A stretch of DNA of 64,000 bases, from NCBI GenBank assembly GCA_965116905.1, contig OZ220732.1:992001-1056000 (forward strand), given 5' to 3'. This document shows positions 36,129 through 36,536 of the stretch, one piece after another. Every line of letters starts with the position of its first letter. The stretch's first letter is position 1. Position numbers and translations under genes: made by a program. The notes beneath the pieces are model-generated. The model saw only the letters and a program-made list of their open reading frames with translations, had not been told where the DNA came from and made no database searches. Source of the DNA: Longimicrobiales bacterium. Lineage in GTDB: Bacteria; Gemmatimonadota; Gemmatimonadetes; Longimicrobiales; Gaopeijiaceae.

Positions 36129-36221
36129 GTGTTTCCATCTCTCGCGTTGGGTACGCCGTCATCGGCGCAACCGTTTGACTGGCCTGCTGCTGGCGTCCGG
36201 GCCGGCAGAGGGCTGGGATCG

Positions 36222-36536
36222 CTACAGAGAGATGGAAGGCGGCGGCGCGCGACTGCGATGAGGGGAGAGATGGACGATTCCGGAGGTCAACCGGCTTCCG
36301 GGGAGTGCGGGGGTTCGCACCACGCCCGGCTCCAAGACGGCCGGAGCGTCCGCGGTGGCTGTCTGCACACCCTGGTGGCCAAACTCACAGACGGAGCACA
36401 CGGCCGACAGATCGGACTCCGTGTGCGTGTGAGTGCTTTCAAAGGCGGTCAAGAAGAGCAGGGAGAGGCCGATGGCGATTCCAGCCAGCGAACGCACGCG
36501 TCCCCGCGATCCTCTTAGACCGATCAGGTGGGTCAT
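36222..36536 (-). CDS. DUF2946-like leader protein with His/CxxC and C-terminal RAPP motif
   Basis: Hydrophobic N-terminus, HTH...CSVC, ends HRSRAPPPSISL; directly upstream of the ABC operon. Confidence 0.7.
   Translation of the reverse strand: MTHLIGLRGSRGRVRSLAGIAIGLSLLFLTAFESTHTHTESDLSAVCSVCEFGHQGVQTATADAPAVLEPGVVRTPALPGSRLTSGIVHLSPHRSRAPPPSISL

Follow-up and report, generated by a model that had tools for sequence, protein, structure and literature searches.

CruR (Bp2923, DUF2946/PF11162) of Bordetella pertussis is a CxxC- and RAPP-bearing leader whose action depends on Rho and on an unstructured, C-rich tract (PMC9426467). In vitro, toeprinting places its arrest at RAP|P (PMC12992588), and RAPP arrest resists EF-P. 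CutF of Rhodobacter capsulatus carries CxxxC and PPP, is EF-P sensitive, stalls with copper and controls a detoxifying oxidase (PMC9973294; bioRxiv 10.1101/2025.02.05.636593). In the stalled complexes of CruR, ApdA and ApdP alike, the P site holds the first Pro (PMC12992588, PMC10951233). On the side of transport, the Caulobacter znuGHI genes (an ABC-2 ATPase and two permeases, beside znuK) are Zur-repressed, and ZnuGHI is induced in zinc shortage (PMC4176598, PMC6103462).

RAPP leaders ahead of diverse metal genes have already been described, and non-copper CutF-like proteins have already been proposed. The CruR paper remarks that riboswitches for Cu or Zn had not been described (PMC9426467). 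Our search of the openly accessible literature found no paper on DUF3526 or PF12040, no zinc uORF of the RAPP-leader kind among the papers listed and, in the titles and abstract starts of those listed, no RBS opened by a ribosome queue. No ABC/DUF3526 neighbour occurs in those supplementary files of PMC12992588, PMC9426467 and PMC9973294 that were searched. Here we describe a RAPP leader ahead of a DUF3526 ABC operon, and a candidate mechanism by which stalled ribosomes could open the operon to translation.

A RAPP leader at the head of a DUF3526 ABC operon

The window, which is the whole stretch of 64,000 nucleotides that was analysed, comes from a Longimicrobiales bacterium; the nearest relatives, at 95-96%, are genomes of Gemmatimonadota (Longimicrobiales). 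The leader is the first gene of the operon, has its own promoter-like site and is separated by a gap of 93 nt from the ATPase, behind which lie four permeases that form two pairs by similarity, 1 with 3 and 2 with 4 (Table 1). The sigma70-like pattern occurs 5' of 39 of the 42 orthologous leaders and in none of 840 control windows. The leader promoter escaped a consensus promoter and terminator scan, which gave no terminator either. No Fur/Zur-like box was seen at this promoter, nor was a Caulobacter-type Zur box matched near the leader. An Rfam search of 35900-36800 gave no score near a gathering cut-off, and in NCBIfam no family matched the leader and no name was found for the permeases. A sponge metatranscriptome contig covers the leader, the gap and the start of the ATPase, with a depth that is flat over genes of both strands, DNA contamination being possible.

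Outside the operon, the first 23 residues of an S9 peptidase ORF (36714-38717, plus strand) match a FitA-like RHH antitoxin family, possibly as a remnant, and a promoter-like site lies near this ORF at 36680-36708. A TonB receptor and SusD-family gene pair (39329-43641, plus strand) is unrelated to the leader system as far as tested.

Table 1. Features of the leader and ABC operon, in window coordinates
Feature	Position	Strand	Basis or remark
Leader promoter, sigma70-like: -35 TTGATT, 17 nt, -10 TAACGT	36599..36627	-	pattern match
Leader Shine-Dalgarno-like GGCGGAG	36543..36549	-	sequence; orthologues purine-rich at the same place
Leader ORF, 104 aa, CruR/DUF2946-like	36222..36536	-	ORF, anatomy, aligned leaders
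Hydrophobic segment (residues about 17-32) after basic N-terminus	36441..36488	-	sequence; maximum hydropathy 2.26 over 15 residues
Putative metal ligands H36, H38, C47, C50, H54	36375..36431	-	conservation
Arm A, anti-RBS copy TCCATCTCTC, codons V88-H89-L90-S91	36265..36274	-	complementarity; overlooked in the earlier note
RAPP arrest motif; predicted P site Pro98, A site Pro99	36240..36251	-	register from CruR, ApdA, ApdP
Arm B, anti-RBS TTCCATCTCTC	36227..36237	-	two nt past RAPP codons; conserved core 36234-36227
Intergenic hairpin 1	36187..36208	-	two-sided changes at 3/8 pairs
Intergenic hairpin 2	36150..36172	-	two-sided changes at 4/9 pairs; also in TonB-receptor paralogue
ATPase initiation region GAGAGATGGAA, target of both arms	36133..36143	-	4 nt ahead of ATG 36128
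ABC ATPase, 246 aa	35388..36128	-	PF00005; ATG at 36128
DUF3526/ABC-2 permease 1	33966..35378	-	domain match; NosY-like predicted fold
DUF3526/ABC-2 permease 2	32534..33964	-	domain match
DUF3526/ABC-2 permease 3	31085..32533	-	domain match; 38% identical to permease 1
DUF3526/ABC-2 permease 4	29682..31058	-	domain match; 30% identical to permease 2; start codon inferred

With permease 1, 80 loci were fetched. An adjacent CxxC/RAPP leader was present in 67 of these, ten had none by this filter and three lack the ATPase in range; CxxC and RAPP served as selection criteria for leader-bearing loci. Two of the ten (L017 and L073) have a RAPP leader that has lost one Cys, and these were excluded from all counts. 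The remaining eight are without an adjacent leader. In these eight (L030, L037, L038, L040, L042, L043, L047 and L080) the ATPase is coupled to another gene and has a plain GGAGG, the operon coming after a TonB receptor, another ABC ATPase and a protein of at least some 1150 aa. The gap between ATPase and permease is 246 nt longer in L007 and L009.

An earlier note on this DNA had read the leader as a 104-aa ORF of CruR-like anatomy. The ORF was borne out, with the C-terminal end RSRAPPPSISL, and it carries H36-x-H38, C47-x-x-C50, H54 and RAPP at residues 96-99 of 104. Its hydrophobic segment is a probable export signal. The likeness to CruR is supported by a CxxC-to-RAPP spacing of 45 residues, equal to that of CruR and found in the window and in 42 of the 67 leaders, the other 25 having a spacing of 42. 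The Pfam model DUF2946 (PF11162) scores 15 bits on the leader, under the gathering cut-off of 23.7, and is matched weakly (E up to 0.1) by 13 of 19 aligned leaders. Going by these comparisons, the leader is a divergent CruR/DUF2946 relative rather than a formal family member.

C47 and C50 are invariant across the 19 aligned leaders. HxH, which was no selection criterion, is present in all 67 leaders (42/42 and 25/25), and a His stands at C+4 in 41 of 42. Over the tree of 42 sequences the four RAPP codons changed synonymously 3, 8, 11 and 8 times while the residues stayed constant, and the two Cys codons did so 5 and 2 times; RAPP and CxxC are therefore maintained as peptide. Within the genome, leaders of this build account for three of 544 RAPP/RGPP-near-stop frames versus none of 452 AAPP/AGPP controls; the two besides the leader described here lie ahead of related TonB receptors. 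A second class of RAPP/RGPP leaders has C-x(3-4)-H-x-H-x-x-C in place of CxxC (G000:C1:3051584, minus strand; L092-L109) and heads related TonB receptors in many relatives.

Two anti-RBS arms and their modelled opening

The 11-nt complementarity between TTCCATCTCTC and GAGAGATGGAA on which the earlier note was built is real, and in the fold it had suggested (36260-36120) the helix appears in both the MFE and the centroid structure (z -2.45; 4 of 200 shuffles as good). The 11-mer has four occurrences in the genome, counting both strands. Since the Shine-Dalgarno of the ATPase is weak (GGA; split duplex -7.8 kcal/mol), the helix would hide the initiation region from -15 to -5 and not a strong Shine-Dalgarno. 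The target includes an ATG (36136-36138, minus strand) that is out of frame here and in the ATPase frame in several orthologues.

Conservation of this helix in orthologous loci had been anticipated and holds in part. Among 41 distinct alignment rows, the inner eight pairs are kept in 324 of 328 cells, but the outer three are paired in only 31, 8 and 18 of 41; the helix is kept in the 42 Gemmatimonadota-type loci but is absent from the 25 Vicinamibacterales-type (Acidobacteriota) loci. The leaders of the latter end in RAPPA and have neither arm. As an observation on the same loci (L050-L081), a GGAGG block lies 41-49 nt before the ATPase ATG with a hairpin between. Covariation, which the earlier note had named as a check, was not clearly above shuffles for arm B (12, 42, 44, 71 and 101 of 500), because the helix hardly varies. 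The consensus fold of 42 sequences consists of the 8-bp arm B helix and the two inner hairpins, and covariation over this whole structure beats shuffles (0-13 of 500). Alignments A1 and A3 do without L051, which has a longer gap but is part of the codon counts and of the 43-locus set used for opening costs. An extra helix between pre-RAPP codons and bases past the stop was rejected, as it occurs in one subclade only and is absent from the consensus fold.

The codons speak more plainly. Ser in arm B is TCT in 41 of 42 leaders; elsewhere the codon is rare, with 1 of 413 in the ATPase, 19 of 371 in the body of the leader and about 3% genome-wide. The third positions of the arm change 1, 0 and 1 times on the tree against a median of 7. 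The RBS partner GAGAGATG is nearly invariant and co-changes with the arm in L032, where both sides of arm B have changed, and in TonB-receptor paralogues; seven loci use G-U. In eight of nine of these paralogues an A-U pair of arm B has become G-C with a canonical GGAG as target, which may represent one event. Selection on arm B at the nucleotide level is thus supported, chiefly by codon constraint and less by covariation.

The fold window of the earlier note excluded a second anti-RBS, arm A, which lies upstream of RAPP and is read in a different frame from arm B. With 60 nt more upstream, the RBS pairs with arm A at a probability of 0.91 and with arm B at 0.09, with duplex energies of -17.6 and -19.3 kcal/mol, respectively. 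A sliding measure of RBS complementarity along the leader gave two peaks only, arms A and B. Complementarity was -14.3 versus -7.8 after synonymous resampling for arm A and -15.6 versus -8.5 for arm B, a resampling spread that is understated because the loci are kin (ATPase DNA identity 76-99%). His89 is CAT in 33 of 36 cases as against 14 of 153 elsewhere in the leaders, and third positions in arm A change 2, 6 and 3 times against a median of 7. Covariation in arm A was nothing above shuffles, 94-500 of 500 of which reach it. Selection on arm A is only probable, because rare codons also persist outside the arms (CCT in 24/32, CTT in 25/32) and because the arm is weak (above -11 kcal/mol) in seven of 42 loci. 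The two-arm layout was not seen in three plasmid loci with a profiled RAPP/RGPP leader, nor in the 25 Acidobacteriota loci.

Reported ribosome boundaries lie ~12 nt 5' and ~16 nt 3' of the A-site codon; stacked ribosomes follow one another at 25 nt, and the SmrB cut falls 11 nt upstream (bioRxiv 10.1101/2021.08.16.456513). With its 3' boundary ~16 nt past the A-site codon, a ribosome stalled at RAPP would cover arm B, as the earlier note had supposed. The predicted footprints are ~36254-36226 for the lead ribosome, over arm B, and ~36279-36255 for a trailing one, over arm A. As a separate observation, genome-wide matches comprised two Rho-like motifs, four Fur-family matches and two Smr-domain proteins; a MutS2-like protein and a stand-alone Smr protein are encoded, both named from size and domain.

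Folding models, which take no account of a ribosome that might keep arm A from reaching the RBS, were used to estimate the cost of opening -15 to +3. For the locus in the window this cost was 14.1 kcal/mol in the free RNA; a single stalled ribosome changed it to 13.1, a pair to 3.4, a collision cut to 3.7 and a terminating ribosome to 13.3. The corresponding medians over 43 loci were 12.7, 10.9, 5.1, 5.0 and 9.5 kcal/mol. A drop of at least 3 kcal/mol was obtained with one stalled ribosome in 11 of the 43 loci, with a pair in 40, after a cut in 39 and with a terminating ribosome in 17. In the 20 of the 43 sequences used for further models, masking one arm alone had little effect and masking both lowered the cost from 13.6 to 6.1, while a codon-by-codon scan found no single-ribosome position that opens the RBS and a pair opening it only from RAPP on. 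Eight TonB paralogues showed little modelled opening (10.4, 9.1, 7.5), with a pair effect in two of eight and an arm A of 5-6 bp. The coverage of arm B by a stalled ribosome, as proposed earlier, is supported; the further proposal that masking this one arm turns the operon on is unsupported in that form, since arm A can re-lock the RBS.

We tentatively propose, at a probability of roughly 0.4, that ribosomes stall at RAPP in zinc scarcity and that the stalled and queued ribosomes together mask both arms, so that the ABC operon is translated. Transcription would be constitutive, from the sigma70-like promoter. Arrest at RAPP, with Pro98 in the P site, would be the default when the metal (probably zinc) is scarce; the lead ribosome would cover arm B and a trailing ribosome 25 nt behind it arm A, or a collision nuclease would remove arm A by a cut. 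Single ribosomes that pass or terminate would leave one arm free and the RBS shut. Metal bound to HxH, CxxC and the further His, together with a pull from folding or export, would release the arrest and turn the operon off when metal is plentiful.

The alternative that survives best is the simpler one of the earlier note, in which a single ribosome at RAPP masks arm B and this is enough. Arm A would then serve untranslated mRNA as a redundant lock, follow from the VHLS residues as a by-product, or be unable to pair around a ribosome. We consider this unlikely. In its favour, constraint on arm B is much the stronger of the two, the consensus fold chooses this arm, published footprints cover it wholly, 11 of the 43 loci open with one ribosome, and CutF and SecM offer precedents. 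Against it, the 10 pairs of arm A are formed in 91.5% of cells and cover the GGA better than arm B does, arm A wins the RBS in 16 of 42 folds of the free RNA (arm B in 25), and its V, H and L codons all end in the base that pairs. Returning to the queue model, a narrower proposal, which we regard as rather doubtful, is that the locus is a ribosome-counting switch: its two arms would be so spaced that no single ribosome could cover both, and the operon would open only with a collided pair at RAPP or through a collision cut that removes arm A, with a zinc-sensing peptide in place of Zur.

Metal, polarity and the remaining alternatives

The earlier note set the ABC target apart from TonB receptors, a contrast that was overstated, since a leader of the same build, with the same RNA layout, precedes a TonB receptor at another place in the genome, and DUF3526 operons usually neighbour such a receptor. 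This paralogous leader (C1:2560902) is 43% identical, has the same two hairpins and follows a gene of the zrgA type, one of the DUF3299 (zrgE) type and a member of the Fur family; its receptor has ZnuD as best NCBIfam match. DUF3299 is zrgE in the Vibrio Zur regulon (PMC9817125). The surrounding region (G000:C1:2558000-2563000; L001:10066-14870) is a probable zinc-uptake cluster of a zrgA-type gene, DUF3299, a Fur-family regulator, the RAPP leader and the ZnuD-like receptor, and it also holds a His-rich lipoprotein-like ORF. The cluster contains an AT-rich box that we take to be Fur-like.

Among the Vicinamibacterales-type loci, a second leader lies upstream in 13 of 25, with a receptor between both leaders in nine and none in four. 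These nine show the order leader, ZnuD-like receptor, leader, ABC. The ZnuD matches, at 189 and 204 bits, are far under the cut-off of 950, and other DUF3526-associated receptors score as siderophore type. In plasmid records the DUF3526 operon adjoins a TonB receptor in eight of the nine annotated loci viewed; the window operon has no adjacent receptor. R[AG]PP leaders stand ahead of five of 11 plasmid loci scanned, one of them annotated as DUF2946. In Bacteroidota, one DUF3526 operon headed by a RAPP leader adjoins folE, a MerC-domain gene and the gene of a GTP-binding protein.

The Caulobacter crescentus genome holds PF12040, and its ZnuHI (CC1519/CC1520) may be homologous to the DUF3526 permeases. 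None of 35 metagenome loci with the published Caulobacter Zur box has a DUF3526 permease match, no Caulobacter label appears in the homologue lists, and no convincing Zur box turned up when 11 plasmid loci and this genome were scanned. On balance zinc is the somewhat probable metal of the leader system, copper and any other metal each being distinctly less likely. An operon that is on in metal shortage is favoured because of the uptake context and the default arrest at RAPP.

Permease 1 has a predicted structure (pLDDT 85) with a NosY-like fold, the closest solved membrane fold being NosY of NosDFY (PDB 7o0y, 7znq; E 1.7e-5, TM 0.70 on target, 15% identity). P-H-x3-H and E-x-H (H68, H72, E102 and H104) are invariant in 32 aligned DUF3526 permeases and form a candidate metal site on this modelled fold.

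Such a fold, of an exporter-type class, is among the points for the opposite polarity or for copper, in which metal would cause or prolong the stall and the operon would be on in excess, for NosFY-like copper handling or export. CutF has this polarity, CxxC leaders lie mostly ahead of copper genes, and a CopA-type ATPase is found near 11 of the 80 loci (L009, L046, L028 and kin). The window leader has a PPP, but only six of 42 orthologues share it; the paralogue sits in the zinc-uptake cluster, the plasmid operons adjoin TonB importers, and znuGHI is zinc-repressed. We hold this reading to be very unlikely. Separately, a MerC-domain gene was seen near four loci (among L009, L046, L028 and kin).

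About equally improbable, if not slightly more so, is transcription attenuation of the CruR type as the main output, with the two pyrimidine tracts as Rho loading sites covered by stalled ribosomes and RBS pairing secondary. CruR itself works through Rho and a C-rich unstructured tract, the genome has two Rho-like motifs, U-ending codons persist just outside arm A, and a ribosome queue would cover both tracts too. Against it stands the pattern seen in arm B, where TCT is kept and not the commoner, C-richer TCC, where conservation ends at the helix end, and whose partner GAGAGATG is nearly invariant and changes together with it. That the leader senses no metal, and monitors secretion (ApdP/SecM-like) or merely couples translation with its His and Cys incidental, is highly improbable. 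In its favour, secretion monitoring was the role in which RAPP peptides with export signals were first described, the opening cost falls with a terminating ribosome in 17 of 43 loci, and a Cys is lost in two loci; against it, HxH is present in every leader although not selected for, and the three such leaders of the genome all lie ahead of metal-uptake-type genes.

Comparison with known systems

Copper is the only metal for which sensing leader peptides have been shown (CruR, CutF); a zinc version, if true, would close this gap and place the DUF3526 ABC family, unstudied so far, in metal uptake. Bacterial ribosome collisions are known as a rescue signal (bioRxiv 10.1101/2021.08.16.456513); their service as an on-signal would, if true, be a new use. 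The design is compact and testable by synonymous mutations.

The locus resembles Caulobacter crescentus ZnuGHI in its ABC-2-type ATPase and permeases and in the association with TonB receptors, a likeness of layout. It differs in that ZnuGHI has Zur at the promoter and two permeases, whereas here there are four permeases in two pairs and no Zur box was matched. From NosFY it is set apart by the large periplasmic part and the His/Glu motif of DUF3526, unmatched in NosY, and no nos genes were seen near the window operon. With the RAP(P/G) peptides SecM, ApdA and ApdP it shares the arrest motif, the register and a downstream RBS predicted to be exposed by the stall; those peptides, in contrast, monitor protein export, precede sec genes and have no metal ligands (PMC10951233).

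Like CutF-cutO, the system has a putatively exported, putatively metal-binding leader, and computation suggests that a stalled ribosome would open an RBS-hiding stem; as a switch of the CutF type demands, such a stem is present, by computation, within reach of the stalled ribosome. CutF differs in its CxxxC and conserved PPP, where the window leader has CxxC and a PPP that few orthologues share, and in its single anti-SD within an intergenic stem-loop, as opposed to two long-range arms that lie inside the coding sequence and flank RAPP. Like CruR, the leader is a small first gene with an export signal (putative here), CxxC, a spacing of 45 residues and RAPP near the C terminus, followed by a long intergenic region and uptake-type genes, and its polarity (stall on, metal off) is likely the same. 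Unlike CruR, it lies below the Pfam cut-off, has an extra HxH and His, belongs to a Gemmatimonadota host, directly heads an ABC operon in a context that points to zinc, and appears to act through RBS pairing rather than Rho termination. By analogy with these two systems, the locus is probably CutF-like in its output and CruR-like in its polarity.
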